DNA of 63,249 nucleotides, the filler included, from Deltaproteobacteria bacterium (lineage in GTDB: Bacteria; JACQOV01): assembly GCA_016202395.1 (NCBI GenBank). It is 3 parts of 3 records of this genome, joined end to end, with 100 filler letters (N's around TTAATTAATTAA, not from the genome) between each part and the next. Parts side by side here need not be neighbours in the genome. Positions count along the whole stretch, not along the records: positions 44,837 to 63,249 come from JACQOV010000059.1; 2 more parts are not named here. One strand, written 5' to 3'. Positions within the stretch are counted from its first letter, which is position 1. Each line of letters opens with the position of its first letter. Below the pieces are notes generated by a model. That model searched no databases, was not told the DNA's origin, and worked only from the letters and a program-made list of their open reading frames with translations. The position numbers and the translations under genes were made by a program. Positions 34,267 to 58,748 of the stretch are shown piece by piece.

Positions 34267-34860
34267 ATGGAGAAAAAACTGAAACCACTGGATGTGCTAG
34301 ACAGGCTGCAACAAAGGCAAGTTCGCATCTTTTCACCTGAAGAATTTCGCCGCATCTTTTCAGTTTCTTTAAGGGCAACTCAGGAGTTTATTAAGGACCA
34401 CCAAAAAGATCTCTTCGTGAAGCTTCGCAATGGTCTTTACACGCTTCGAATGAACTTCCCTAATGAATTCGAAATTGCAAATCGACTCTACCAACCCTCC
34501 TACGTTTCTTTTGAATATGCTTTGGCACACCATCACATGATCCCAGAGGTGGTATACACTATCACATCAGCCACCACAAGAATCACTCGGTCCTTTGTGG
34601 CGCGGGGCATGCTTTTTGAGTATTCCAAAATTAAGTCCATGGCCTATCGAGGGTACAGTTGCGAAGGAAAAGACGGGGCTACCATCCTTGTTGCGGGGCC
34701 AGAGAAAGCCTTGGTGGATTATCTCTATTTCGTCGATCTAAAATTAAAGGCTTGGAATGATAGGCTGGCTCTTCGAAAAATAAATAAAAAATTAGTGCTT
34801 CAATATGCTTCTTACTTTGAGAGGGAAAGTCTTAATAAACGAATTAAGGATCTGTTATGA
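34267..34860 (+). CDS. type IV TA antitoxin, AbiEi-like
   Basis: LRNGLY, PSYVSFEYAL..H.MIPE, PEKALVDYLY. Confidence 0.87.
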   Translation: MEKKLKPLDVLDRLQQRQVRIFSPEEFRRIFSVSLRATQEFIKDHQKDLFVKLRNGLYTLRMNFPNEFEIANRLYQPSYVSFEYALAHHHMIPEVVYTITSATTRITRSFVARGMLFEYSKIKSMAYRGYSCEGKDGATILVAGPEKALVDYLYFVDLKLKAWNDRLALRKINKKLVLQYASYFERESLNKRIKDLL

Positions 34861-35600
34861 TCGAAATAAAACAATTTCAACGGCTTGCAGATCACCGGAT
34901 GACGACTGTGGAAAACGTCGTACGCGAGTTTTTCCAAAATCTCTTTTTATCTTATTTATATCAGCAAAAAAACTCTGAAAAACTTCTCTTTAAAGGAGGG
35001 ACCGCTTTACGGCTGATCTGGCAATCCCCTCGTTTCTCAGAAGATCTCGATTTTACGGGATATAAAATTTCCACATCCCAAATTGAATCTATTATAGAAT
35101 CAACCTTGGATAAAATTGAAAGGGAAGCTTTTCAGGTGGATATAGAGGAGTCCAAAAAAACTACAGGTGGCCACCTCGGAATTTTTCATTTTGCAGGGAA
35201 TGGTTACAAAAGCGCTCTTCAAATTGAGATTTCGCTGCGTGAAAAACGGGTTTGCGGAGTAATGACCTCCATTGTTCAGCCTGAGCTGCTCCCCCCTTAC
35301 ACCATTGTCCATTTGGATGAAAAGATCGTCGTTCATGAAAAGATCCTCGCATGCCTTACCCGTGGCAAGCCGAGGGATTTTTTTGACCTCTATTTTATAC
35401 TCAGGAGCCGAATGGCATTTAAAGAAGTCTTCCGTGAAGACAAAACCCTCCAATCGAAACTTTTGGCGAAGGTCTCAAAAGAACGCTTAGATCTGCGAAG
35501 TGAGCTAAAACAATTTCTGCCCGCGAGTCATCGTTTGCTTTTGAAAGACTTTAAATCCTCATTGTTAAGAGAAATAGAGAGAAGCTTCCCAGAAAGATAA
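34857..35600 (+). CDS. type IV TA toxin, AbiEii-like nucleotidyltransferase
   Basis: FKGGTAL, RFSEDLDF, EK...R.KPRDFFDL. Confidence 0.9.
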   Translation: MIEIKQFQRLADHRMTTVENVVREFFQNLFLSYLYQQKNSEKLLFKGGTALRLIWQSPRFSEDLDFTGYKISTSQIESIIESTLDKIEREAFQVDIEESKKTTGGHLGIFHFAGNGYKSALQIEISLREKRVCGVMTSIVQPELLPPYTIVHLDEKIVVHEKILACLTRGKPRDFFDLYFILRSRMAFKEVFREDKTLQSKLLAKVSKERLDLRSELKQFLPASHRLLLKDFKSSLLREIERSFPER

Positions 35601-37047: not shown

Positions 37048-38529
37048 ATGACTCATTACGTTGTCGCTATCGACCAGGGAACCACCGGAACAAAAGCGGT
37101 TGTTCTTGACAGACAACTCCGAATTCGGGGCACGGCAAGTCAGGAATTCACACAACATTACCCCAAACCGGGCTGGGTAGAGCATGAGCCTGAGGAGATT
37201 TGGCAGACCTGCCAGAAAACCTTGGCACGAGCCCTTCGCGCGGCAAAAGCCACTGCTGCGGACATCGCTGCTATCGGAATTACCAACCAACGAGAAACCT
37301 CCGTTCTCTGGAATAAAAAAACAGGGAAACCGGTTTATCGAGCCATCGTCTGGCAAGACCGACGGTCTGCGGACATCTGCAAAAAACTCAAAGAAGAAGG
37401 GGTCGAAGAGATATTCCAAAAGAAAACGGGGTTAATTCTCAACCCTTATTTCTCTGGCACCAAAGTCGCCTGGCTTTTGCAGCATGTGAAGGGGCTTCGT
37501 GAAAAGGCGCAAACCGGAGAGATCGTTTTCGGAACGATCGATAGCTGGCTCGTCTACAAACTGACGGGGGGAGAGATCCACGTCACCGATGTTTCAAACG
37601 CCTCGCGCACCCTTCTCTTAAATCTCAACACACTGAATTGGGATGCCGAGCTTCTAAAAATTCTCTCGATCCCACGCGAGATGCTGCCGGAGGTGCGCTC
37701 TTCTTCCGAAGTCTACGGCACCACTGCCAAAAGTAGCGGCCTCCCTGCTGGGATTCCCATCGCGGGGATTGCGGGGGACCAACAGGCGGCGCTTTTTGGC
37801 CAGGCCTGTTTTGAGATTGGATCTGCTAAGCTCACGTTCGGCACCGGCTCTTTTTTATTGATCAACACGGGGGATCGGATCGTCCCTTCACAACATCGAT
37901 TGCTCACAAGCGTTGGATGGAAGATCCGAAACAAAACCACCTATGTCTTGGAAGGTTCCGCTTTCATTGCCGGAGCGATGGTGCAGTGGCTTCGGGACGG
38001 ATTGGGGATCATCAAGCACTCCTCTGAAGTGGAGGCCTTAGCCAATTCGGTCCCAAATAGTGGAGGTCTCATCATTGTTCCAGCGCTGGCGGGGCTGGGG
38101 GCTCCCTATTGGAGAAATGAGGCTCGAGGCCTCCTTTGGGGGCTCGATCGAGGAACAACCAAAGCTCATATCGCCCGAGCGGCCTTGGAAGGGATTGCAT
38201 TCCAGAATAACGACCTCGCCAAAGCGATGGAAGAGGATATTGGAGAGAGGCTGACTTTATTAAAAGTGGACGGGGGCGCCTGTTCGAACGATCTTCTCAT
38301 GCAATTCCAGGCCGATGCCATGAATACCGAGATCGTGAGACCTCAGATTACAGAGACCACCTCCCTTGGGGCCGCTTTCTTGGCAGGCCTCGCTGTCGGG
38401 ATCTGGAAAAAAATGGACGAGATCCGAGCCACGTGGAAAACCGACAAGCGTTTCCATCCAAAGATCAAAGAACAAGACCGCGAGCTGGCTTTGCGCCGCT
38501 GGGCCGAGGCTGTCCGCCGTTCGTTTTGA
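37048..38529 (+). CDS. glpK: glycerol kinase
   Basis: IDQGTT, GITNQRET, YFSGTK, TDVSNASRT, GDQQAALFGQ. Confidence 0.98.
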   Translation: MTHYVVAIDQGTTGTKAVVLDRQLRIRGTASQEFTQHYPKPGWVEHEPEEIWQTCQKTLARALRAAKATAADIAAIGITNQRETSVLWNKKTGKPVYRAIVWQDRRSADICKKLKEEGVEEIFQKKTGLILNPYFSGTKVAWLLQHVKGLREKAQTGEIVFGTIDSWLVYKLTGGEIHVTDVSNASRTLLLNLNTLNWDAELLKILSIPREMLPEVRSSSEVYGTTAKSSGLPAGIPIAGIAGDQQAALFGQACFEIGSAKLTFGTGSFLLINTGDRIVPSQHRLLTSVGWKIRNKTTYVLEGSAFIAGAMVQWLRDGLGIIKHSSEVEALANSVPNSGGLIIVPALAGLGAPYWRNEARGLLWGLDRGTTKAHIARAALEGIAFQNNDLAKAMEEDIGERLTLLKVDGGACSNDLLMQFQADAMNTEIVRPQITETTSLGAAFLAGLAVGIWKKMDEIRATWKTDKRFHPKIKEQDRELALRRWAEAVRRSF

Positions 38530-38667
38530 AACCGTTCGCAAACGTGGAGATCCCTTAACGGAGAGGTGTAAAGTTTTATGCACAAAGCTCCAGGGTCTTG
38601 TTCTTAAAAGAAAAACCTCACAAAACGGTCATAAAAAGCCACTCTAAAGTGTAAATAAAGTTGGCAA
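38485..38667 (+). repeat. 183-bp direct repeat, copy 1 (glpK 3' end plus downstream DNA)
   Basis: aligns without gaps to 44554-44736; 5 mismatches by manual count. Confidence 0.95.
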
Positions 38668-42689: not shown

Positions 42690-43115
42690 TTACTCCTGTT
42701 TTATGATTTCACAGAGCCGTCTCGGAGTGACTATTTCGATGCCTTGGTGCGATCCTAAATCTAAGAGATCGCCATCGCCTGTAACGATGTAATCGGCTTT
42801 CCCAGCAATGGCAGTCGAGATGACTATGTTATCCTCAGGATCCCGTTCAATCACACTCAATGATGGAAGATCTCTCACCACCACAGAATACTTAGCGAGG
42901 TTTGAGAAAACCTTTTCCATCTGGCTTGAATTGAAGTGATATTTCTTTTTGATCCTGGGATAATTAAAAACCCTCTCCGCTTCTTCCAACATCGCAAGAG
43001 AAGTTACCAGAATCAACTCTCCTCCCTCCCACATCTTGGCAATCTTGTAGGAGAACCCTTTGGAGTGGATAGTACCGCTAATCAGGACATTGGTGTCGAC
43101 AACAACCCGAATCAC
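42690..43115 (-). CDS. PIN-domain toxin (TIGR00305-like)
   Basis: VVVDTNVLISG, RDPEDN, IVTGDGDLL. Confidence 0.9.
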   Translation of the reverse strand: MIRVVVDTNVLISGTIHSKGFSYKIAKMWEGGELILVTSLAMLEEAERVFNYPRIKKKYHFNSSQMEKVFSNLAKYSVVVRDLPSLSVIERDPEDNIVISTAIAGKADYIVTGDGDLLDLGSHQGIEIVTPRRLCEIIKQE

Positions 43116-43381
43116 TGTTTACGGACCGCTTTCAAGGCTTCCTCGACATCTGCCGCTACCTCCTCCTCGGAGTAGGATCGATTCTTCGACCGAATCTGGT
43201 CGAAGATCCCCATATCTTTCTCCCTCTGCTTCCGATAGTTTTCAAACTCCTCAACCGGCATTAGAACCGCCATCGATTTCTTCCCCCTTTTGATGATGTA
43301 CTCTTTCCCTTTATAGAAGACTTCCTCGAGAATCTCACCGAGATGCCCTCGGACTTCCAGTGCTGTGAGCGCCTTTACCAT
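43112..43381 (-). CDS. Phd/YefM-family antitoxin
   Basis: TALEVRGHLGEILEEV, IIKRGKKSMAVL; SD GGAGG; start ATG 43381. Confidence 0.88.
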   Translation of the reverse strand: MVKALTALEVRGHLGEILEEVFYKGKEYIIKRGKKSMAVLMPVEEFENYRKQREKDMGIFDQIRSKNRSYSEEEVAADVEEALKAVRKQ

Positions 43382-43406
43382 GAACTGCCTCCTTCTTTCT
43401 ACATCA

Positions 43407-43434
43407 ATTATAATGATTGTAATAATTATGTCAA
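43407..43434 (-). promoter_or_regulatory. sigma70 promoter of phd-PIN
   Basis: TTGACA-16 bp-TATAAT on minus strand. Confidence 0.7.
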
Positions 43435-43471
43435 TTAGAGAGAGTTCATTAGGTTTGAACAAGTTTTTAAA

Positions 43472-43493
43472 ATATGATACTATAATATCATAT
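43472..43493 (+). promoter_or_regulatory. palindromic operator over -10 and start codon of MNT-HEPN operon
   Basis: atatgata-ctataa-tatcatat; TATAAT 43481-43486 lies 5 nt before ATG 43492. Confidence 0.65.
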
Positions 43494-44082
43494 GGCTTTT
43501 TCGGGTAAATTCGTCGTAAGGATAGATCCTCAACTCCATGAGAGCTTGAAGGGGAAGGCCCAGAGAGATCAGGTTTCATTGAACCGTCTCTGTGCCACTC
43601 TGCTTCAAGAAGGTCTGGAGGGGACGTCCCAAATCCCAAGGAATGAATCTCGATGGGCCCCTCTGCTCCAACCGTGGGTGGATGCATTAAGGAAGCAGTT
43701 TAATGAAGACCTGATCGGCGTCGTTCTCTTCGGCTCTCGCATCCGAGGAGATGCAACTTCTACTTCCGATTTAGATCTATTGGTGATATTGTCAGACGAG
43801 ATCAAGATTGAACGTCGACACTACCACTGGTGGGATAGCCTGATGGCCTCGGAGGTCCCTTTTGAAATCAACCCCCACTTCGTCCATCTTCCAAAAGATG
43901 AGATGCGCTCCAATGGGATATGGTATGAAGTGGCCCTTCATTCTGAAATATTTTGGGAAAAGGATCGCATCGTTTCAAAAAAACTCGACCAACTGCGAGA
44001 GGTCATCGCTTCAAGCAAAATTCAACGTTTCTGGACGAATGGACACCCTTACTGGGTGAGGAGCAACCATGAAAAACACTGA
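43492..44082 (+). CDS. HicB-like RHH domain fused to minimal nucleotidyltransferase (MNT) antitoxin
   Basis: SGKFVVRIDPQLH...SLNRL; LFGSRIRGD...SDLDLLV. Confidence 0.85.
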   Translation: MAFSGKFVVRIDPQLHESLKGKAQRDQVSLNRLCATLLQEGLEGTSQIPRNESRWAPLLQPWVDALRKQFNEDLIGVVLFGSRIRGDATSTSDLDLLVILSDEIKIERRHYHWWDSLMASEVPFEINPHFVHLPKDEMRSNGIWYEVALHSEIFWEKDRIVSKKLDQLREVIASSKIQRFWTNGHPYWVRSNHEKH

Positions 44083-44479
44083 TCTTGTTACCGATTATAT
44101 CAACCGAGCTGGGCATCGACTGGAGGCGGTCCGGCTACTTTTTCAAAAGAACAGCTTTGCCGATGTGGTGCGCGAATCCCAAGAGGTTGTGGAGCTTTGT
44201 TTGAAGGCCCTTCTTCGAGCTTCGAATATCGAGGTGCCTCGCATTCACGATGTCAGCGCCATCCTTCAAGATCAAAAAAGCAGACTCCCCCAGGTCATTC
44301 AACCCCAGGTCGACCATTTAGCGAAGATCTCGAAAAGTCTGAGACGCGATCGCGAATTGGCCTTTTACGGAACCGAGGATTTAACCCCCTCCGATTTTTA
44401 CAATCAAGAGGATGCGCAAAAAGCGCTCGATGGAGCCTCCTCTGTCTACGATCTCTGCCAATCGGCCTTGGAAGATTGA
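44069..44479 (+). CDS. HEPN-domain protein (toxin)
   Basis: SQEVVELCLKALL, PRIHDV, RELAFYG; coupled to MNT. Confidence 0.88.
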   Translation: MKNTDLVTDYINRAGHRLEAVRLLFQKNSFADVVRESQEVVELCLKALLRASNIEVPRIHDVSAILQDQKSRLPQVIQPQVDHLAKISKSLRRDRELAFYGTEDLTPSDFYNQEDAQKALDGASSVYDLCQSALED

Positions 44480-44553: not shown

Positions 44554-44736
44554 CTGGCTTTGCGCCGCTGGGCCGAGGCCGTCCGCCGATCGTTTTGAAA
44601 CCGTTCGTAAACGTGGAGATCCCTTAACGGAGAGGTGTGAAGTTTTATGCACAAGGCTCCAGGGTCTTGTTCTTAAAAGAAAAACCTCACAAAACGGTCA
44701 TAAAAAGCCACTCTAAAGTGTAAATAAAGTTGGCAA
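44554..44736 (+). repeat. 183-bp direct repeat, copy 2 (runs into gap)
   Basis: still encodes LALRRWAEAVRRSF* of glpK. Confidence 0.95.
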
Positions 44737-49144: not shown

Positions 49145-49354
49145 TTAAAAGGCTCCCTTCGAGATGATGACGCGGATCACTGTGACGATGTAGCACACCA
49201 TGCCTAGAAGGATCATTGGGATGCCGATGACAAAAAACAGGGTCATGGTAATCCGGTGGAAAAGGGCCGCGCTGATGATTCCTAATAACAATCCCGTGAT
49301 TTCTAAGGCGCAGCCGATCCACAGCCAACGCATCATTTTAGGGTCATTCATCAT
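49145..49354 (-). CDS. small two-TM membrane protein, copy 2
   Basis: 69 aa hydrophobic; near-identical to 50021-50227; overlaps NapC-like stop. Confidence 0.75.
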   Translation of the reverse strand: MMNDPKMMRWLWIGCALEITGLLLGIISAALFHRITMTLFFVIGIPMILLGMVCYIVTVIRVIISKGAF

Positions 49355-49952
49355 CGGAGTATACCTCGTGAATTACATCATGACATCCCTTGTCCATGCA
49401 GCTTTGTTTATTAGTTTTTAAACGGACCCTCATCTTCGGATCTTGTTGGTGGTACTCCGTTTCCTCAAATTTTTTCGCCCCTTCGTGGCAGCGCAGGCAT
49501 TCTCGATTATTATAAGGCTGGTAGATTTCGATCTTTTTGGGCGCTCCTTTAAAATAATGCACATTCATATGCAAGAGCCCTTGGATCTTTGCTTTGATCG
49601 GGCCGTACAGGGTGTAATCGGTGTGGCACTCATAGCAGGCCTTCTCTTTGTGAACCCAATTGTTTTGGTAATGGATGGTGGGGATCCTCTCGTCGTCATC
49701 TTCTTCAAGGCTTTCTCCATAGGCTTCCATTTCATGGCACGAAAGGCAGAATGAGACCTCTTTAGAATTTTCCATATTGATATGAACGGCTGCAGAGAGG
49801 ACAAGAGCGGGAAGGGCAAGGGCGCCGAGCAAGAGAAGAACTTTTCCTAGGCGCTGCATAAACCACTCGCGTTGGGCAAGGAGGACCGCGAGAAGGACAA
49901 TGTTTAGCGCCATGAGGCCAACGATGACATAGGGCCCTGCGGCAAACGTCAA
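49344..49952 (-). CDS. NapC/NirT-family tetraheme cytochrome c, copy 2
   Basis: two N-terminal TMs, FCLSCHEM, CYECH, CLRCH, CMDKGCH. Confidence 0.88.
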   Translation of the reverse strand: MTFAAGPYVIVGLMALNIVLLAVLLAQREWFMQRLGKVLLLLGALALPALVLSAAVHINMENSKEVSFCLSCHEMEAYGESLEEDDDERIPTIHYQNNWVHKEKACYECHTDYTLYGPIKAKIQGLLHMNVHYFKGAPKKIEIYQPYNNRECLRCHEGAKKFEETEYHQQDPKMRVRLKTNKQSCMDKGCHDVIHEVYSDDE

Positions 49953-50020
49953 GTTATTCCCCTTTCAGGCCCCAATATATCAAATCCTGAGACAAAATGT
50001 GAGCCGTAGGAGATCTTGCG

Positions 50021-50227
50021 TTAAAAAGCGCCCTTCGAGATGATGATGCGGATCACTGTGACGATGTAGCACACCATGCCTAGAAAGATGGTTGGGATGC
50101 CGACAACAAAAAACAGGGTCATGGTGACCCGATGGAAAAGGGCCGCGCTGACGATTCCTAATAACAACCCCGTTATTTCTAAGGCGCAGGCGACCCACAG
50201 CCAACGTATTTTGGGGTCATTCATCAT
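50021..50227 (-). CDS. small two-TM membrane protein, copy 1
   Basis: MMNDPKIRWLW...IISKGAF; paralog of 49145-49354. Confidence 0.75.
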   Translation of the reverse strand: MMNDPKIRWLWVACALEITGLLLGIVSAALFHRVTMTLFFVVGIPTIFLGMVCYIVTVIRIIISKGAF

Positions 50228-50867
50228 TGGAGTACACCTCGTCAGTTCCCTCATCGGAGTACTCTTCGTCAGGGTACACCTCATGGGTCACATCATGGCA
50301 TCCCTTGTCCATGCAACTTTGTTTGTTGATTTTTAGCCGCAGCAGCATCTTAGGATCCTGTTGATGTTGGGGGAGATTCTCAAATCTCTTAGCCCCCTCA
50401 TGACAGCGGAGACACTCCCGATTGTTATAAGGTTTGTAGAGCGCGATATCCTTGGGGGCCCCTTTGATATAGTGAACGTATATGTGCATTAATCCGCGAA
50501 CCTTCGCTTTGATGGGCCCAAACACCGTGTAGTCGGTATGACATTGGTAACAAGCCTCCTTCTGCTCAACCCAATTGTTCTGGTAATGGATGGTGGGAAT
50601 CATCTCATCATCGTCTTCATGGAGGCTATCGACATAAGGCCCCATTTCGTGGCAGCCCAGACAGAAGGAAACGCTTTCAGAGTTTTTAATGTTCAGCGCG
50701 AACGTTGCTGCCACCACAAGGGTGGGGAAAACGATGACCACCAAAAAGAACAGGACCTTTCCCATTCTTTGCAGGATCCACTCGCGTTGAACGAGGAGAA
50801 CCGTCAGAAGAACAATGTTCAACATGGTAATGCCGACAACGATGTAAGGTCCTGCTGAGCTAAGCAT
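50217..50867 (-). CDS. NapC/NirT-family tetraheme cytochrome c, copy 1
   Basis: FCLGCHEM, CYQCH, CLRCH, CMDKGCH; acidic repeated tail. Confidence 0.88.
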   Translation of the reverse strand: MLSSAGPYIVVGITMLNIVLLTVLLVQREWILQRMGKVLFFLVVIVFPTLVVAATFALNIKNSESVSFCLGCHEMGPYVDSLHEDDDEMIPTIHYQNNWVEQKEACYQCHTDYTVFGPIKAKVRGLMHIYVHYIKGAPKDIALYKPYNNRECLRCHEGAKRFENLPQHQQDPKMLLRLKINKQSCMDKGCHDVTHEVYPDEEYSDEGTDEVYSNDE

Positions 50868-50873
50868 GATTCA

Positions 50874-51284
50874 TTATTTTAAGGTTAGGAGCCACTCCAC
50901 CAGTGTTTTCCGCTCTTCAGGGGTCCCCTTAAAGCGCTTTTTGTGTTTTCCCCCCTTATCGTCGGCCACTTGCTTTCTGATGAATTTATCCAAAAAATCG
51001 GCGGTGCATTCTATTTTACTGTCTTTCTTGCTGCAGAGATTGGAGAGATCGGGAGGCTCGACTTTTTCTCCTCCTTCTTCCTCCTCCGCCTCTTCATCCT
51101 TTATCTCTACCTTTACGATGCCTACGGATTTCACCGTGTGGCACGCATTACATTTGTAATCTAGAAAGACCTTTTTCCCAGGGAGATCCGCAGAGTAGGC
51201 TGTTTGGAGATTGAGCAGATAAAAGAGGGTCCACCCTAACAGCCATGCTAAAGAGATCCACAACACTTTAACCGCCACCTTCAT
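50874..51284 (-). CDS. monoheme cytochrome c, copy 2
   Basis: SD GGAGG, signal/anchor, GKKVF..YKCNACH, PPDLS, KHKK. Confidence 0.88.
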   Translation of the reverse strand: MKVAVKVLWISLAWLLGWTLFYLLNLQTAYSADLPGKKVFLDYKCNACHTVKSVGIVKVEIKDEEAEEEEGGEKVEPPDLSNLCSKKDSKIECTADFLDKFIRKQVADDKGGKHKKRFKGTPEERKTLVEWLLTLK

Positions 51285-51301
51285 TGATTTCCTCCTTCTA
51301 T

Positions 51302-51718
51302 TTATTTGGACGGACAGAGGGCCACGAGCCAGTCGACCAACATCTTTCTCTCTTCAGGAGTTCCCTTAAAGAGTTTTTTGTGCTTTTTCTCATCCTTATT
51401 GGCCTTGGTTTTCAGTATCCATCCCTCCAGATCTTTGGTCCAATCTATTTTACTCTCTACTTTGCCGCTGCAGATATCGGAGAGATCCGGGGGCTCCACT
51501 TTCTCTTCTTCATCCTCGGCGTCTTCCTCCGCCACCACTGCTTGTTTTTCCTTTGCAATGCCTTGAGAGGTTACAGTGTGACAGCTCTGGCATTTATACT
51601 TTTGAAAGATCGCTTTTCCATCGGCAGAATAGGCTGTTTGGAGATTGAGCAGATAGAAGAGGGTCCACCCTAACAGCCATGCCAAAGAGATCCACAATGC
51701 TTTAACCGCCAGCTTCAT
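51302..51718 (-). CDS. monoheme cytochrome c, copy 1
   Basis: SD GGAGG, GKAIFQKYKCQSCH, PPDLS, KHKK; start ATG 51718. Confidence 0.88.
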   Translation of the reverse strand: MKLAVKALWISLAWLLGWTLFYLLNLQTAYSADGKAIFQKYKCQSCHTVTSQGIAKEKQAVVAEEDAEDEEEKVEPPDLSDICSGKVESKIDWTKDLEGWILKTKANKDEKKHKKLFKGTPEERKMLVDWLVALCPSK

Positions 51719-51790
51719 CGATTTCCTCCTCCTATTTAGATGGATTCCCGTGTGGACTTTGGTATCCACACGGGTTTCCTTCTTTAAAGT

Positions 51791-53038
51791 TTAAAACATC
51801 GTCCTAAAGTTCAACAAGAAGTCATGTGCCGGTTCTGTATGGCCTGTCTTTTCCCCCAAAACATCAAAACCCGCGTAGAAGGTGAGTCTCATATTCTCGC
51901 GGATCTGATAGGTGAGACTCGGGGTAATCTTATGAAGTTCCGCTCCGTTGAAGTTGTCGATTGGGACGGTTCGATCCCATGCAATTCCAGGAACCCAGGG
52001 ATACTTTACATAGGCTCCAAGGAGCGTCCAGCCGTAGAACTTGCCTTCAACAGGGGTTGCGGCCAGCGTGACATTGTCATCTTTGCCATAGACATAGCCC
52101 CCTTGAATATCGACGTTTTCACCATAACGCACATTCAACGACGGAAAAAGCCGCCAGTAGTCGTTCCGTTTTTGAGCGGTGTCTGTGTTTTTGGTATCCG
52201 TTCCCCAAGCATAGTGGAGAGTGACGCTGCTCCCTTCAAATGCGCTTTCCATGGCTTCGGTCACCTCAAGGCGCGCCCCTGTCCAATAGTTGAGGAAGTT
52301 ATTTTTTTCAGCGCCACTGGATCCGGGTGAAATGCCTGCGTACCAAACGACCGGCCCTTTTTCACCATAGTAGGTGATCCCAGGGCGGGCCGAGGTGACA
52401 TCCACGCTGTCTTCGCCAGTTCCATTAGAGGCTTTGAGCCGCAGCGCTTCATTCTTTAGAGCGGGAAACAGAGGGAGTCTATTAGGAAATGAAGCGAACA
52501 ATACGGGGCTCACGTTTCCAACTTGGAAATTGACATAATCTCCCACTAGGTTATGAAATCCAAGATAGAACCAGTTGAATTTGAATGCATCCTTTGAGAA
52601 TTCATTCTCGATAAAGATCGAGACATTCTTGAAGATGCTTCCCGCGACAAAAAATTGGAGCCAGTCCGGGTTTCCGATCGTGAGTTTGGTTTCTTTGCTA
52701 TCATTGCTTTCAATATCAAGACTGTTCGTTTGAATCCGAAGTGGCGTCACATTGAGACGGGCCCCCAGCCAATTTTCAACTTTCCCAAGAGTGAGCCGTC
52801 CTTCTCCACCCAATGCCTTCATCCCAACGGTGTCTCCATCCCCTTCGGGATCATCCGGGCTTTGATAGCCATTGCGCAAAAATCTTTCACCGTAATAATT
52901 CAGCCGGGGAAAGATGTTATGGCAGGTGGAACAAGGCTCTCCATATTTTCTGGAGAACTGAGAGACGGCGCTCGCCTCTCGTGGCCAGAAAATAAAGAGG
53001 CCCATCGCTATAAGAGTTAAAGATAAGACATATTTCAT
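51791..53038 (-). CDS. Cyc2/ExtI-like fused monoheme cytochrome-porin
   Basis: signal peptide ending ASA; FSRKYGEPCSTCHNIFPRLNYYGERFLRNGY; beta-strand-rich body; C-terminal Phe. Confidence 0.8.
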   Translation of the reverse strand: MKYVLSLTLIAMGLFIFWPREASAVSQFSRKYGEPCSTCHNIFPRLNYYGERFLRNGYQSPDDPEGDGDTVGMKALGGEGRLTLGKVENWLGARLNVTPLRIQTNSLDIESNDSKETKLTIGNPDWLQFFVAGSIFKNVSIFIENEFSKDAFKFNWFYLGFHNLVGDYVNFQVGNVSPVLFASFPNRLPLFPALKNEALRLKASNGTGEDSVDVTSARPGITYYGEKGPVVWYAGISPGSSGAEKNNFLNYWTGARLEVTEAMESAFEGSSVTLHYAWGTDTKNTDTAQKRNDYWRLFPSLNVRYGENVDIQGGYVYGKDDNVTLAATPVEGKFYGWTLLGAYVKYPWVPGIAWDRTVPIDNFNGAELHKITPSLTYQIRENMRLTFYAGFDVLGEKTGHTEPAHDFLLNFRTMF

Positions 53039-53108: not shown

Positions 53109-53124
53109 TATGACCTGCGTCATG
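53109..53124. promoter_or_regulatory. Crp/Fnr-type box upstream of cytochrome-porin operon
   Basis: TATGAC-CTGC-GTCATG. Confidence 0.7.
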
Positions 53125-53371: not shown

Positions 53372-53409
53372 TATGATAGGCATCAATCTATCCTATGATT
53401 TATATCATA
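53372..53409. promoter_or_regulatory. tandem Crp/Fnr-type boxes
   Basis: TATGAT-AGGC-ATCAAT (53372-53387) and TATGAT-TTAT-ATCATA (53394-53409). Confidence 0.7.
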
Positions 53410-53779
53410 GGGTTCCCACACCGGAGGGGAAAAAGTGAAAGATCGCGGACTTTGGGATAAAGAGAACCTCGACCTCTGTTTGTGCAGTGCAGGTGGCGCA
53501 ATAAGGGGTTGTGGAGAGGAGGTGGTTGAGTCCGATCAAAAGGAGTTGGTCTGGATCGGTTCCCACAGAGAGGGTCTCAGGAGCGCTATTGGATAAGGTC
53601 ACTTTCCCTTTCTTAAGCTGGAAGAAACCGTAGGGTATATGATTTTTGTAGAAAAGGATTTGTCCTTCTTTGAAGTGGAGGGTTTCTCCGCGAGATTCTA
53701 ATTCGCGCAGACGATGAACCACTTCACCGTAAGTTGTTCCGTCGATTAAGCTCTTTTTACAACAAATATCGGATGGCAT
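53405..53779 (-). CDS. stand-alone cNMP-binding (Crp effector-like) domain protein
   Basis: FKEGQILFY, GFFQLKKGKV, YCATCTAQTEVEVLFIPK; no HTH. Confidence 0.75.
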   Translation of the reverse strand: MPSDICCKKSLIDGTTYGEVVHRLRELESRGETLHFKEGQILFYKNHIPYGFFQLKKGKVTLSNSAPETLSVGTDPDQLLLIGLNHLLSTTPYCATCTAQTEVEVLFIPKSAIFHFFPSGVGTL

Positions 53780-53780
53780 G

Positions 53781-54890
53781 TTAGGCGGCTCCTCTTAAAG
53801 TTTTGGGTTGATAAACACAAAGGGGCTCTTCTCCCAGGAAATCGCCCGTGGCATAGTAAGCTCGCGCTCGACATCCCAAGCAGACCTTCTTGAACTCGCA
53901 TTCACCACATTTCCCTTCCAAAAGATCGACATCGCGAAATCGGTTGAAAAGAGGAGAATGGTTCCAGATCTCTGAAAAGGCCTGGGTTTTAACATTCCCC
54001 GCGCTTAGCGGAAGATAACCACAGGGAAAAACCTCTCCAGTGTGCGACACAAAACAGATCGATGTGGCTGCGAGGCAGCCTCTCGTGAGCGTATTCATCT
54101 GATGTTTATCCCCCTCACCCGACCTTCGGTCTCCCTCTCCCCTTTGGGGTGAGGGGGGAACGTTTCGCAATCGATTCTGTTGTCGGATCACGCGAAAATA
54201 ATGCGGGGCGCAGGTCGCTTTCAGATGGAGCCGATTATCGAGAGAGCGCTCATAGAGCCAAACTAAAATCTCTTCGTACTCTTCAGCAGAGATTTGATGA
54301 GACTCCGCGATTTCCAATCCGCAACCGACCGGGACTAGCAAAAAGAAGTGCAACGCGTCAGCCCCTAGTTCTACCGCCATGCGATAGATATCGGGGACCT
54401 CTTTTGCATTGTGTCGTGTGACGGTAGAGTTGATTTGAAGGCTCATTCCCAGGGCTTTGAGGCGGGTGAAACCTTGGAGGGCCGCTTCAAAGGATCCTGC
54501 TTGTTGGCGGAACGAGTCGTGGGTTTCCGCGGAGGCTCCATCGAGACTAATGGCAACACGGCGTATCCCAGAATCGACGATAGTTTTCGCTGTTTCTCCA
54601 TCGATCCTCGTGCCGTTGGTGGCCAGCGCCACCGGGAGTTCCAGCTTTTGAGCCTCTCTCGTGATATCAAAAATATCCGGTCTCATTAAGGGCTCCCCTC
54701 CGCTCAGGACAAGGATCGGTTGGCCTACTTCTCGAATCTGTTGGAGAAGGGATCGGCATTCCTCAAAGTCGAGGTCATTTTTCATCAGGTTCCGGCTCAC
54801 ATCGAGTCGCCGACAATGGATGCACTCGAGATTGCAACCTGCCGTGGTTTCCCAGAAGAGGAGCCTGAGATCCGGTTGGATGGCATTCAT
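53781..54890 (-). CDS. ahbD: radical SAM/SPASM heme b synthase (AhbD/NirJ2-like)
   Basis: FWETTAGCNLECIHCR, KATCAPHYFR, GCLAA, CGEC..KKVCLGCRARA. Confidence 0.88.
   Translation of the reverse strand: MNAIQPDLRLLFWETTAGCNLECIHCRRLDVSRNLMKNDLDFEECRSLLQQIREVGQPILVLSGGEPLMRPDIFDITREAQKLELPVALATNGTRIDGETAKTIVDSGIRRVAISLDGASAETHDSFRQQAGSFEAALQGFTRLKALGMSLQINSTVTRHNAKEVPDIYRMAVELGADALHFFLLVPVGCGLEIAESHQISAEEYEEILVWLYERSLDNRLHLKATCAPHYFRVIRQQNRLRNVPPSPQRGEGDRRSGEGDKHQMNTLTRGCLAATSICFVSHTGEVFPCGYLPLSAGNVKTQAFSEIWNHSPLFNRFRDVDLLEGKCGECEFKKVCLGCRARAYYATGDFLGEEPLCVYQPKTLRGAA
54110..54158. repeat. palindromic element in frame inside ahbD (CTCTCCCC/GGGGAGAG family)
   Basis: ccccctcaccc-gaccttcggtc-tccctctcccc-ttt-ggggtgaggg; encodes PPSPQRGEGDRRSGEG. 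Confidence 0.85.
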
Positions 54891-56089
54891 TGGAGTCCAA
54901 TCTCCTTATCGGTGAGGTAACAACTCGGATCAGGGGCCCAAGGATCTCCGTGCGCTCTTTCGGCACGGACCCGCATTGCCCCTCCGCAAAGATTCAAGAA
55001 ACGACAGGAGCTACATCGCCCCTTGAGCCACCGTTTTCGATCTCGGAGCTTGCCCAAAAGGGGTTCGGATTCGTCTTGCCAGATCTCGCTAAAAGGGCGT
55101 TCTCTAACGTTCCCTAAGGTGTAATCCATCCAAAACTGATCGGGGTGAACATTGCCAACGAAATCGACACAAGCGATGCCAGTGCCGGAACTGTGGAGCC
55201 CTCCACCGTTCCAAGTCAGCATCTGGTGAACCTCCTCAGATCGTGGATCCTTTTCCTCCAGCATTTTGAGGTAAAGATAGGGGCCATCACAGTGATTATC
55301 CACCGTGAGGATCTCAGTATCGAGTCCCCTTTGATAGAAGCCGCGCGTTCGTTCCAGGATCGTGTCCACCGCTCCTCGCGCCTCTTCCGGAGTGAGATCC
55401 ACCAGGCCGTGCCCTCGTCCCGAGGGGACCAGATGATAAAAACAGGCCCTCCGGATCCCTTCTTTTTCGATGAAGTCGAAGATCTGATTCAGATCATGAG
55501 CGTTTTGGCGCGTGAGGGTCATCCGAAGTCCTACCTTTTGCCCCCGTTCCACCAGAAAACGCATCCCCTGGACCGCGCGATGGAAGGCCCCCTCCATTCC
55601 TCGGAAACGATCATTCGTCTCTCCCACTCCATCGAGGCTGATCCCTACGTAAGAGAGTCGGGATTCAACGATATGATCTGCCATTTTTTCATCAATGAGG
55701 GTCCCGTTGGTCGAGATCACCGTGTGAGTTCCCATGGAGCGGGCCTCATAGGCTAAGGCAAAGAGGTCCTTGCGCAGCAGAGGTTCCCCTCCAGAAAACA
55801 GCAGGGTTGGGATCTGGTATTTACCGAGGTCTAGGATCATCTTCCATGCCTCTTGTGAGTCCAATTCCCCTGGGTATTTCTTGGCCTCGGAGTCGGAGTA
55901 GCAATGGACACATCGGAGGTTACAGGTTCGGGTGCAGTTCCAGACAACGACTGGGCGACGTTCCTTGGCCGATTTGGCGAGTTTATGAGCCTGCTCCGGG
56001 GCAGGGGAGAGGTTTTTTAACGCCTTTCCATAGCGATGGGGCTGCGAAGCGGTCTCTTTGCCACAAAATAGGGCGGAAACATCGATCAT
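54887..56089 (-). CDS. ahbC: radical SAM/SPASM Fe-coproporphyrin III synthase (AhbC/NirJ1-like)
   Basis: RPVVVWNCTRTCNLRCVHCY, CFYHLV, LTVDNHCDG, HPDQFW, DPSCYL. Confidence 0.9.
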   Translation of the reverse strand: MIDVSALFCGKETASQPHRYGKALKNLSPAPEQAHKLAKSAKERRPVVVWNCTRTCNLRCVHCYSDSEAKKYPGELDSQEAWKMILDLGKYQIPTLLFSGGEPLLRKDLFALAYEARSMGTHTVISTNGTLIDEKMADHIVESRLSYVGISLDGVGETNDRFRGMEGAFHRAVQGMRFLVERGQKVGLRMTLTRQNAHDLNQIFDFIEKEGIRRACFYHLVPSGRGHGLVDLTPEEARGAVDTILERTRGFYQRGLDTEILTVDNHCDGPYLYLKMLEEKDPRSEEVHQMLTWNGGGLHSSGTGIACVDFVGNVHPDQFWMDYTLGNVRERPFSEIWQDESEPLLGKLRDRKRWLKGRCSSCRFLNLCGGAMRVRAERAHGDPWAPDPSCYLTDKEIGLQ

Positions 56090-56123: not shown

Positions 56124-56161
56124 TATGATGACGATCATGTGGCCGTATGACTTTGTTCATG
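56124..56161. promoter_or_regulatory. tandem Crp/Fnr-type boxes between ahbC and regulator
   Basis: TATGAT-GACG-ATCATG (56124-56139) and TATGAC-TTTG-TTCATG (56146-56161). Confidence 0.7.
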
Positions 56162-56237: not shown

Positions 56238-56945
56238 TTGAAGAACTCCCCACTCCATTGTCAAACTTGCGCAAGTCGCGGGACGAGCGTTTTCTGCGAT
56301 GTCACCGAGGAACATGCTCGTGAAATCGATCGTTCCAAAACCACCAATAGTTATAAGCCCTACCAAGTCATTTTCTATGAGGGGAACGAACCTTTTGGTG
56401 TTTTTTGTGTTAACTCCGGAAAAGTGAAGATCTATAAGATGGATACCAATGGGCATCAACAGATTGTTCGACTATCCGGAGCCGGGGACATCATCGGTTA
56501 TCGGTCTCTTTTGAGTAATGAGCCTTACCATGCGACTGCAGAAACGTTGGAGGAGGCCACGATCTGTTTTTTCGACAAGAAAACCTTTTTCCATGTTTTA
56601 GAAACTCACCCGACCACCGCTTTTCATGTGATGGGCCTTCTCGCTCGTGATCTTCGACATGCGGAACAACAGATGGCCAGCATCGCCCACAAGAACGTTC
56701 GAGAGCGCCTCGCGGAATTGCTTCTGGTCTTCCGCGTGAAGTACGGCGAGAAAGCAAAAAAGGGGATTCGATTGAACATCTCGCTCAGCCGAGAGGAGTT
56801 GGCGGAGCTGATTGGAACCACCCAAGAATCGGTCATTCGGTTGATCAGTGAATTTAAGCAAGATGGGCTCATCGATGTTCAAGGGCGGGAGATCACATTG
56901 TTAGATCTTCCTCGTCTCCTCTCCACCGCGAACCTGCCTGAATAA
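56238..56945 (+). CDS. Crp/Fnr family regulator with N-terminal Cys cluster
   Basis: CQTC-x8-C, cNMP barrel, HTH LSREELAELIGTTQESVIR. Confidence 0.93.
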   Translation: MKNSPLHCQTCASRGTSVFCDVTEEHAREIDRSKTTNSYKPYQVIFYEGNEPFGVFCVNSGKVKIYKMDTNGHQQIVRLSGAGDIIGYRSLLSNEPYHATAETLEEATICFFDKKTFFHVLETHPTTAFHVMGLLARDLRHAEQQMASIAHKNVRERLAELLLVFRVKYGEKAKKGIRLNISLSREELAELIGTTQESVIRLISEFKQDGLIDVQGREITLLDLPRLLSTANLPE

Positions 56946-56953
56946 AAGAAAGT

Positions 56954-57811
56954 TTAGAGGTATTCTCGCATCTTTTGGAGTCGATCGAGAAAAAAATCTC
57001 TCCCCCAAACCTCAATCGTCTTTAATTCGGGAGCCTTAAGAAATCGGGCGACATCATTTTTAGCCGTTTGCCAATCGATCGATTTAATCTTTTCCTTCAT
57101 TTCCTTCAGGTACCATTCCTTATCAGCGATAAGTTGGATTCCTTCCCAATGGCCTACCTGTCGGCAGGCGTTCGTCAGAAATTCAAAATTAATCGGTGTT
57201 TTTCTGCTGACATACCAAACAAAGTCGTACCAATCCCTCCCCTTCACATATTCACGACACAAAAGGGCATGGGATTTCCCTGCGAAAAGGCTGGGAAGGT
57301 CTTGAAGGGTCACGGGGAATGGGAATGGAAAATCAAGATATTTGGTTTCAAACCCTCCTGCTTGAGGAGGGTTGCTGTCGACCTCGAGTTTGACTCTCAA
57401 GCTTTTGGGTTTCCTATCGGTGGGGAAATGTTTCAGCGTCAACACCTTGCCGATGGAGTCCTCCTTTAAGAATGCTTTCCTCACGTTCTCATCCGCTTTG
57501 GACCGATCTTGAACGGTGATGGTGATTCCGTAGGTTTGAAATTCTTCTTGTAAAGCATGAAGATAAGGAGCGAGTTGGAATGAGGAATCGCTTCTTCTGA
57601 GTAAGAAATCGAGGTCTTCTGAGAATCGCTGTAAGCTGTAGAAAATTCTCAGAGCTGTTCCTCCTTGAAACGCAGCCTGTTTAAAGAAATCAGTTCGACT
57701 TAAACCGGCTAAAGCGATCTCTTGGAGAATTTCCTTCAAGGAATGCTCCTCTTCTTGCCAGGTTGAGCATTGATAACTCTCTAATCTCTCTTGGAGGATC
57801 CTCACACTCAT
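56954..57811 (-). CDS. type IV TA toxin, AbiEii-like
   Basis: FQGGTALR, RFSEDLDF, KSHALLCR..KGRDWYD. Confidence 0.9.
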   Translation of the reverse strand: MSVRILQERLESYQCSTWQEEEHSLKEILQEIALAGLSRTDFFKQAAFQGGTALRIFYSLQRFSEDLDFLLRRSDSSFQLAPYLHALQEEFQTYGITITVQDRSKADENVRKAFLKEDSIGKVLTLKHFPTDRKPKSLRVKLEVDSNPPQAGGFETKYLDFPFPFPVTLQDLPSLFAGKSHALLCREYVKGRDWYDFVWYVSRKTPINFEFLTNACRQVGHWEGIQLIADKEWYLKEMKEKIKSIDWQTAKNDVARFLKAPELKTIEVWGRDFFLDRLQKMREYL

Positions 57812-58443
57812 AGTTTTAGATCCTTTCTTACCCCTTTGAAGAACTTTAATACTCGACGACTCCGGAATGTTTCTTGGATCTCTTCAAGCTCGCGGGGATC
57901 TGTTTGTGTCAGAAATTCTTCATCGATTCGTAGCGATTGCATCAAGGGTCGAACACCTCTCCAGTCTTTTTTGTAGGCGTATACCATATCCGCGAGCGCC
58001 TTCCAAGGTTTGGCGATGAGATAAACAATTTTCCCTTCGGTTTCTCGGACCACCCTTGTTAAAAAAGGATCGCAAGGAATTCGGGTGTAACTGAAGAGGC
58101 CCAAAGGGATGTCCCAGTGTCGAGATCGTTTCAAGGAGGCTGATGTAATCGTGTGAACGGCTTCGGGGATCCAACCGTGTTGCGATAAGGCCGATTCGAA
58201 GCTGATGTACGAGGGGCCGTAGATCTGCTGGGCCAGCCAAAACAGATTTAGGGGTTGACGTCGGTATCTTTCAGCGAGACAATAAAGCCCCCTTCGAATG
58301 TGGATCAGTTCCTTGTGAGCGAGCGCTCTTTTGATGAGGCCGTACCGTCGGTTCGGACTCCCCTTCAGGAGGTTCATCAACTCCGTGTCACGAAAACAAT
58401 CGAAAGGAATCTGCTCCCGGATAGGTTCGATGATCTTGCTCAT
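57808..58443 (-). CDS. type IV TA antitoxin, AbiEi-like
   Basis: IRRGLY, PSYISFESAL..HGWIPE, PWKALAD. Confidence 0.88.
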   Translation of the reverse strand: MSKIIEPIREQIPFDCFRDTELMNLLKGSPNRRYGLIKRALAHKELIHIRRGLYCLAERYRRQPLNLFWLAQQIYGPSYISFESALSQHGWIPEAVHTITSASLKRSRHWDIPLGLFSYTRIPCDPFLTRVVRETEGKIVYLIAKPWKALADMVYAYKKDWRGVRPLMQSLRIDEEFLTQTDPRELEEIQETFRSRRVLKFFKGVRKDLKL

Positions 58444-58510: not shown

Positions 58511-58748
58511 GTCAGGCTTCCAAAGACTCAGCTGAGCAGAAATTGAAGGTCCTCGGAGGTCCAGTTTCGCAGGAGGCTTGCATGCTTTTCATGAATGACC
58601 CCGCTTGAATTGTTGCGGCGCCGCAACAATTGCGCGTTTACATATCCCGTTCACCCTAAGCCTAAAGAGATTAATAGGGCGCTACACTAACACACCGCTC
58701 CTTTCTTTTCGACAGGGAATTTGATAGTTGCATGGGGTTGGAGAGACT

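Follow-up and report, generated by a model that had tools for sequence, protein, structure and literature searches.

Seven genes at positions 49145-53038 of the DNA analysed here raise the question of whether a single operon can carry electrons across the whole cell envelope and, if so, in which direction. The window, meaning the entire analysed stretch of 63,249 nucleotides, comes from a Deltaproteobacteria bacterium (JACQOV01; GCA_016202395.1) and consists of three contigs joined by runs of N, with the operon entirely within contig C36. As the initial annotation had stated, the seven genes are co-oriented, all on the minus strand, and in operon order they encode a porin with a haem motif, two monohaem cytochromes (c1 and c2), and two NapC-type tetrahaem cytochromes (N1 and N2), each followed by a small membrane protein (m1 and m2). 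The intergenic gaps (72, 17, 6, -11, 68 and -11 bp, with two starts corrected via ribosome-binding sites) mark one operon, and it is from this spacing that co-transcription would be expected. All three pairs are local duplications, with identities of 68% for the cytochromes, 67% for the NapC proteins and 87% for the small proteins, so that the underlying unit is porin, cytochrome, NapC and small protein. The computational support consists of the gene order and its conservation in other loci, the folds predicted, the haem motifs and homologies, and a palindrome upstream. It is very probable that the genes form one redox chain, and about an even chance is given to a narrower reading in which this chain exports electrons from quinol to a soluble acceptor at the cell surface under low oxygen.

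A haem-porin related to Cyc2

The first gene (51791..53038, minus strand) encodes a Cyc2-like fused monohaem cytochrome-porin of 415 amino acids with a signal peptide (judged by eye and from the N-terminal helix of the structure model), a single CxxCH at residues 36-40 and a C-terminal Met-Phe; the N-terminal motif and terminal Phe quoted in the initial annotation are both present. That annotation had also proposed a check for a β-barrel, and AlphaFold2 predicted one, of 16 strands (pLDDT 92.8). The closest structure to the model was the phosphate porin OprP (2o4v; Z = 24.9, root-mean-square deviation 3.2, 311 aligned residues), and the top Foldseek matches were general porins. At the sequence level, the porin matched no Pfam or NCBIfam family at E ≤ 0.01, and 92 of its homologues were likewise without a Pfam or NCBIfam name, with the exception of one weak LbtU match. 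A sequence search of solved structures gave no match, a plasmid search gave a single match of 52 residues, and the ESM Atlas returned hypothetical-protein clusters only, plus one cluster with Porin_O_P on 20% of its members. The homologue search found 140 sequences, with 120 listed (37-81% identity, the query itself excepted) and 112 aligned. C36, C39 and H40 are invariant in all 112 aligned homologues, which together with the confidently modelled barrel argues that the haem motif is not there by chance, and a haem would be attached at this site. Met414, kept in 111/112 homologues, is a candidate for its sixth ligand.

The resemblance to OprP, along with the invariance of Arg45, Arg94 and Arg412 and the near-invariance of Arg187, Arg296 and Arg304 in the porin family, would suit a channel that is selective for anions and coupled to a reductase or sensor of a solute other than iron (a quinone or an oxyanion), similar to what has been discussed for ExtI. 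This explanation appears quite unlikely, as conserved acidic positions are as numerous as the conserved Arg and OprP is also the template named for modelling bona fide Cyc2 (10.1101/228056). Nor did the connection to ExtI drawn in the initial annotation survive, and membership of that family was rejected, since NF040900 had no match in the genome at E ≤ 1. Geobacter ExtI is likewise a phosphate-porin-like outer-membrane protein encoded within a cytochrome gene cluster, but, in contrast to the porin described here, no haem motif is reported for it in the available text of PMC5877670, in which the haem proteins listed are other Ext subunits.

Cyc2 has been defined by the motif AXPXFAR[Q/K][T/Y], with sequences lacking PXFAR[Q/K][T/Y] removed (10.1101/228056). 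The porin had been taken to match this signature, yet PxFAR[QK][TY] occurs in 0/112 members of its family and in 0/31 further close sequences with CxxCH. The family motif instead reads A[TV][SA]Q[WF][SA]RK[YT], with Ser in the query in place of both the Pro and the Ala of canonical Cyc2, and PxL follows CxxCH in 107/112 members at an offset of 3 compared to the published 4. The canonical motif was present in 43 of the 94 distant porin matches, and the family profile matched the rus-operon Cyc2 of locus L211 (probability 96.6%, E = 5e-10) over 141 N-terminal columns; this Cyc2 was identified by its place heading a cyc1-cup-coxBA-ctaB-rus-ctaG operon in an Acidiferrobacterales genome, for which the gene order in PMC10654088 served as reference. 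Against 48 of these distant proteins, most with the canonical motif and all previously found with the porin family's own profile, the match extended over 387 columns (probability 100%). In a FastTree tree (129 sequences, 360 columns), the 36 porin-family members included formed one clade (SH support 0.98), nested among canonical-motif proteins and far from rus-type Cyc2. By these sequence comparisons, the porin is clearly homologous to Cyc2 but of a divergent clade without the defining motif. Shared with the Cyc2 proteins described in 10.1101/228056 (A. ferrooxidans Cyc2, Cyc2PV-1 and Cyt572) are the signal peptide, one N-terminal CxxCH, PxL, a 16-strand OprP-like barrel and a length of at least 365 amino acids, while the differences lie in the motif, through which the porin is excluded by the database filter of that paper, in the near-invariant Met414, and in the partners, which are a NapC module rather than cyc1, rusticyanin or an oxidase. 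In a Cyc2 with a potential of -130 mV, the haem is located on the periplasmic side of the barrel (PMC13692758), and the function of distant homologues was called uncertain in the Cyc2-defining paper (10.1101/228056).

Periplasmic and inner-membrane modules and their conservation

The two monohaem cytochromes, recognised as such in the initial annotation, are c1 (51302..51718, minus strand; with a signal peptide and an acidic insert) and c2 (50874..51284, minus strand), both of class I; c1 matches PF00034 and has a class I fold (Z up to 7.1). MtoD (4xxl) was among the tied structural matches of c1, and orthology of c1 and c2 to MtoD was not supported (profile E = 0.0026; Z = 5.8 among ties). 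One His is invariant in 17/17 aligned c1/c2 relatives and aligns at or beside the distal-ligand position of c551, and the mature chain of c2 contains no Met, suggesting that both cytochromes are probably bis-His ligated.

The NapC/NirT/NrfH-family tetrahaem cytochromes N1 (50217..50867, minus strand; PF03264, E = 7.6e-12) and N2 (49344..49952, minus strand; TTG start) exceed the PF03264 cut-off (45.7 and 45.5 bits, respectively, compared to 24.1) and fall below every NCBIfam equivalog cut-off. Each has two transmembrane (TM) helices, N-terminal in N1, three CxxCH and one CX4CH, a correction to the haem motifs of the two NapC-like quinone modules proposed in the initial annotation. Four further His are invariant, which with the four motifs is enough for four haems, and a haem would be expected at the CX4CH as well. 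Among NapC-subfamily relatives, CxxCHxM was found in 80/80 and CX4CH in 79/80. Alignment with NrfH of Desulfovibrio vulgaris (2j7a) includes CxxCHxM, found at haem 1 of NrfH, and the proteins have in common the tetrahaem quinol-dehydrogenase family and a Lys near the quinol site. They differ in that a His of N1/N2 aligns at the Asp of NrfH RDVY, which we take to be the haem-1 distal residue, and in that no NrfA-like gene is nearby here; the similarity itself is weak (profile E = 7e-4). The small proteins m1 (50021..50227, minus strand; overlapping the N1 stop) and m2 (49145..49354, minus strand) have two TM helices and a loop His, and their regions are 90% identical over 227 bp of DNA. Without a Pfam family, m1 is a candidate accessory membrane subunit, and it was the sole match among 1,946 genome open reading frames (ORFs; a set without m2) to a small-protein profile that is contaminated by upstream wrong-frame residues.

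Conservation around the porin was surveyed in 39 GTDB loci and 41 porin-bearing genomes. A c1/c2 homologue was located directly behind the porin in 15 of the 36 loci with room. The NapC subfamily was present in 9/41 genomes (this one counted) and absent from 32, and porin, cytochrome, NapC and small protein occurred together in five: this genome (G000), G048, where the set is directly behind an Fnr-like gene, G079, G099, where the porin is split over two contigs, and G088 (Acidobacteriota, locus L028), where the NapC pair is divergent. The Fidelibacterota locus L019 is among these five genomes. Conservation of the operon, which the initial annotation had proposed to look for, was thus found across phyla, but in a small part of the porin-bearing genomes. 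Other porin partners were an octahaem cytochrome with a type IX secretion system (T9SS) tail, a 13-haem cytochrome b fusion, or a pentahaem cytochrome and a molybdopterin subunit. In the Ignavibacteria and Bacteroidota loci, the octahaem carries a T9SS C-terminal domain (PF18962 in 4 of the 6 scanned), often beside a two-component system; the combination was observed at L008, L011, L014 and L015 (e.g., L015:8001-11506) and may represent a secreted surface cytochrome. A full-length porin-family member (L029:7905-9185) was found on a contig assigned to Candidatus Yanofskybacteria, for which, to our knowledge, no outer membrane is expected, and the contig is probably misbinned. Iron-reducing Ignavibacteria are known (PMC7399161).

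A survey starting from NapC covered the best 80 of at least 516 metagenome loci (35 clusters at 70% identity). Where there was room, a monohaem cytochrome was upstream of NapC in 55/60 loci, a small ORF downstream in 57/68, a large barrel in 44/51 (by a barrel profile built from four seeds within the 80 loci) and a cytochrome with at least seven haems in 19/20, while the porin described here was at 0/80. Those decahaems for which the full length was scanned exceed the DmsE/MtrA cut-off, and MtrC-family genes are present in L112 and L152. The barrels are divergent, with 2/30 barrels or fragments passing the PF11854 cut-off. For one barrel compared with the ESM Atlas, the scores were 0.98 with MtrB/PioB clusters and 0.99 with clusters from Acidobacteriota. 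A c1/c2-type monohaem cytochrome is beside the NapC module in L089, L109 and L145, and in L109 and L145 the two adjoin Mtr-like genes. That one inner module occurs with two types of outer-membrane conduit is the strongest argument for the porin being an electron conduit.

A widespread metagenome operon within L075-L154 (e.g., L075:868-5317, L097:439-5245 and L112) consists of a DmsE/MtrA decahaem, an MtrB-like barrel, a monohaem cytochrome c, a CX4CH NapC-type tetrahaem and a small protein with two TM helices. Its barrel is 670-890 amino acids long, divergent, and mostly missed by Pfam and NCBIfam. The NapC-type module of these operons is a candidate inner-membrane partner of acidobacterial Mtr systems, near whose mtrCAB genes PMC8805035 found no inner-membrane quinone oxidoreductase.

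These neighbourhoods leave some room for a chance grouping under one promoter, with the porin-cytochrome pair and the NapC module acting separately: the module is missing from 32 of the 41 porin-bearing genomes, the porin is missing from the best metagenome NapC loci, and in Ignavibacteria it has other partners. We hold this to be the least probable of the explanations weighed here, as the set recurs in Fidelibacterota, Acidobacteriota and two more lineages despite a porin family that is rare and patchy (1/301 and 3/401 genomes in two phylum samples, 2/4 in a third), and as, in L109 and L145, a cytochrome of the c1/c2 type accompanies the NapC module next to Mtr-like genes.

The initial annotation did not recognise the arrangement, yet its gene set mirrors the mto cluster of Sideroxydans lithotrophicus, which encodes MtoAB, the bis-His MtoD, PmcA and the NapC-type ImoA (PMC13390432). 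An outer-membrane conduit, two monohaem cytochromes and a CxxCHxM NapC-family tetrahaem are common to this cluster (mtoA, mtoB, mtoD, imoA and pmcA) and the operon. In the operon, however, the decahaem MtoA and MtoB are replaced by a one-haem 16-strand porin, the monohaem cytochromes are paralogous and both probably bis-His, and the NapC protein, present in two copies, combines two TM helices with a CX4CH haem and is accompanied by a small partner. The operon contains neither an MtrA/MtoA decahaem nor an MtrB/MtoB barrel, and the CxxCH proteins of the genome do not include a 10-haem ORF. A cymA gene adjoining mtrAB or mtoAB is documented (PMC6295460), and mtrCAB clusters carry modular passengers such as CymA and MtoD (Baker et al. 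2022, PMC8805035), a modular exchange of periplasmic and inner-membrane cytochromes around the conduit that is likewise seen here; the conduit of the operon is Cyc2-like, in contrast to that of the MtrCAB clusters, and its NapC subfamily is also found beside MtrA/MtrB/MtrC-like genes. Since the NapC module elsewhere lies behind MtrA/MtrB-like genes, the porin would fill the MtrAB slot of an mto-like cluster. By analogy, the operon would work like an mto/Mtr pathway with a Cyc2-like porin in place of MtrAB, and it is neither Mto nor ExtI. The envelope-spanning electron path proposed in the initial annotation fits the barrel, the haem site, the Cyc2 homology, the recurrence of the set and the presence of the inner module beside MtrAB-like genes. 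In the literature searched, to which supplements and most subscription journals did not belong, no operon of a Cyc2-like porin with a NapC-type protein was found.

Regulation and the direction of electron flow

Upstream of the operon, a palindrome (ATGAY-N4-RTCAT; 53110..53123, no strand), about 79 bp 5' of the porin start, is a candidate operator of the Crp/Fnr family, centred by eye at approximately -42 from an extended -10-like hexamer (53086-53081); a generic promoter scan did not list this promoter. A second copy (56125..56138, no strand) is situated between an ahbC-like gene and a divergent gene for an Fnr-like regulator of the Crp/Fnr family (56238..56945, plus strand; three N-terminal Cys and one central Cys), whose best NCBIfam match was FnrL (92.9 bits, below the cut-off) and which is a candidate activator of the operon. 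Fnr-type regulators act without oxygen. The palindrome differs at the outer base from what we take to be the E. coli Fnr consensus. Beyond ahbC/fnr, it precedes feoB (C9), a 2-oxoacid:ferredoxin oxidoreductase (C10), a pntA-like gene (C14), a cluster of a putative barrel and an 8-haem cytochrome (C43) and a 4-haem/iron-sulfur/NrfD cluster (C71), and it does not precede the caa3 oxidase, alternative complex III (ACIII), nasA or the porin on C87. The candidate regulon sites are C9:3482, C10:7556, C14:5740, C36:8274/8559/11289, C43:10123 and C71:12525. Of the 14 copies in the genome, eight fall within the 17% of bases that long ORFs do not cover (binomial p = 8e-4, with the motif chosen post hoc), compared to 0-4 copies for other spacers. 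The AhbC-like and AhbD-like radical SAM haem-synthesis genes (53781..56089, minus strand) probably belong to the same regulon.

The genome encodes a caa3 oxidase, ACIII, citrate synthase, oxoglutarate dehydrogenase and an assimilatory-type NasA/NirBD cluster. RuBisCO, CdhC, NiFe hydrogenase, cytochrome bd, cbb3 and a second haem-copper oxidase were not found in it, and there was no respiratory nitrate reductase among its four PF00384 matches. ATP-citrate lyase and TIGR03508 (the latter in eight genomes) gave no match, but the controls also matched nowhere. Judged by gene content, the host would be an aerobic heterotroph that has several multihaem conduits for times of low oxygen.

Two lines of reasoning argue for export. 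First, the palindrome accompanies ahbC, feoB, the ferredoxin oxidoreductase and the multihaem clusters and not caa3, ACIII or nasA. Second, with caa3 as the one oxidase found, and neither a respiratory nitrate reductase nor RuBisCO or CdhC among the matches, it is hard to see where electrons from Fe(II) would go under an active Fnr, whereas quinol would need a sink. In the export reading, the Fnr-like regulator would switch on the operon, and the NapC-type tetrahaem, held in the membrane by its own two helices and the two of its small partner, would oxidise quinol at the CxxCHxM haem. The bis-His monohaem cytochromes c1 and c2 would then carry electrons across the periplasm and, on contact with the porin, reduce the single haem plugging the periplasmic mouth of the 16-strand barrel. 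From this haem, electrons would go to a soluble acceptor entering the pore, for which an oxyanion, a humic quinone and chelated Fe(III) are candidates; in relatives, the next carrier may be a secreted multihaem protein.

The opposite direction is an unlikely but substantial alternative, in which the porin is a divergent Fe(II) oxidase and c1 and c2 feed either the caa3 oxidase or the NapC pair acting as quinone reductases, as proposed for Mto/ImoA; electron uptake would then supply extra energy to a heterotroph at low oxygen. It draws on the homology to rus-operon Cyc2 and the full-length homology to canonical-motif proteins, on a parts list equal to that of the mto cluster (PMC13390432) and on the caa3 oxidase and ACIII of the genome, and a low potential is no exclusion, as in vitro Fe(II) oxidation is seen even for a Cyc2 of -130 mV (PMC13692758). 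Against it, the porin clade lacks the Cyc2-defining motif and is far from rus-type Cyc2, the palindrome ties the operon to anaerobic-type genes and not to an oxidase, and neither cbb3, bd, RuBisCO nor CdhC was found in the genome. The Fe(II) oxidation feeding the quinone pool suggested in the initial annotation is thus possible, though only as second choice behind export, and its caution that the proteins by themselves do not reveal the direction was justified.

The palindrome before both feoB and ahbC, along with a VIT1 gene adjoining the operon, would also be compatible with an assimilatory ferric reductase that reduces Fe(III) chelates at the outer membrane, with FeoB importing Fe(II) for haem and no energy conserved. 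We consider this very unlikely: the duplication of cytochromes and quinol modules points to high flux, MtrAB(C)-type conduits are the partners of the inner module in other loci, and the VIT1 gene is convergent, with homologues in 0/39 porin loci.

Several observations weigh against export as well. Assayed Cyc2 homologues oxidise Fe(II) (10.1101/228056, PMC13692758), and the nearest architecture, the mto cluster, is from an iron oxidiser in which ImoA is a proposed quinone reducer (PMC13390432). A single haem at the periplasmic end is out of reach of a mineral surface, and the operon has no extracellular cytochrome. Porin and NapC module are neighbours in no more than 5/41 porin-bearing genomes. 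The palindrome was defined after the porin site had been seen and occurs in 1/37 upstream regions of porin homologues (shuffle mean 0.53), plus G400, so that it was rejected as a family-wide feature. The matches of m1 and m2 to the small-protein profile are weak (E = 5e-4 and 9e-5, respectively). Menaquinone synthesis in the host would depend on a MenA-like gene that scores below cut-offs; the best MenB score was 171 compared to 343 bits, and the genome search found no MqnA/D and no PF02621 match. Further, with a genome of 1.9 Mb that is 89% complete, the absences used in favour of export are weak evidence.

A wider reading is tentative, at somewhat less than an even chance: an outward-working Cyc2-type haem-porin under Fnr-type control may be a plug-in replacement for MtrAB on a shared inner module, the module may be the quinol dehydrogenase missing beside acidobacterial Mtr, and the Ignavibacteria porin may feed the T9SS-secreted octahaem. 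Cyc2 serves as a marker for iron oxidation, and if export is true, Cyc2-like genes are not one-way markers; as it is, the motif-divergent clade escapes the published Cyc2 filter. The module also brings up a membrane subunit that lacks annotation, and it offers soil MtrAB-like operons a candidate quinol dehydrogenase. The compact operon supplies porin, shuttles and quinone link together, so that the whole path could be expressed and its direction measured.

Other features of the window and genome

Between the porin and c1 genes, a 10-bp hairpin (51747..51774, no strand) has its T-run on the non-coding strand, which rules it out as an operon terminator; it is possibly an mRNA stability element. 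Neighbouring genes encode VIT1, MobA, MoaE, a MoaD-like ThiS, MoeA, the AhbC/D-like radical SAM proteins and the Crp/Fnr protein. The identities given in the initial annotation (VIT1, molybdenum cofactor genes, ahbCD and an Fnr-like regulator) were borne out, with AhbC and AhbD scoring 499 and 433 bits compared to NCBIfam cut-offs of 650 and 500. Its use of VIT1 and the molybdenum cofactor genes as relevant context was not, as they are convergent on the other strand, and they were rejected as conduit parts with no homologue in 39/39 porin loci; the cofactor genes more likely serve the NasA/NirBD-like cluster on contig C3. That cluster (C3:2616-8898; L062) has a NasA-like molybdoenzyme and NirB/NirD behind a gene for a fused 4Fe-4S and DmsC anchor protein, which is unusual for an assimilatory cluster. 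A gene for a stand-alone cyclic nucleotide-binding domain (53405-53779) separates ahbD from the porin operon, and two further palindrome-like sites occur at 53373 and 53395.

Elsewhere in the genome, a second possible conduit (C43:5278-10038; L063) consists of a 447-amino-acid unannotated protein ending in Phe, a 939-amino-acid 8-haem cytochrome with PKD domains, and ccmE. Contig C87 (L064:7747-15276) encodes a Porin_5 protein, a 13-haem ExtM-like cytochrome and a two-component system. A 347-amino-acid protein with an N-terminal CxxCH and a terminal Phe (C89:11642-12685; L067:7643-8686) was not found by the porin-family profile and adjoins a lipoprotein-like gene with CX4CH. On C71 (9616-12481; L065:4617-7482), a 4-haem cytochrome, a 4Fe-4S protein and an NrfD/DsrP-like subunit occur together with no catalytic partner adjoining. 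Contig C34 contains a 183-bp direct repeat (97% identical; 38485-38667 and 44554-44736) on either side of a block that encodes a beta-helix protein and toxin-antitoxin systems. Modules of the latter type (PIN, AbiEi/AbiEii and HEPN/MNT) are numerous along the window (1847, 13296, 34267-35600, 42690-44479 and 56954-58443), and an RHS-core gene is located at window position 58728.

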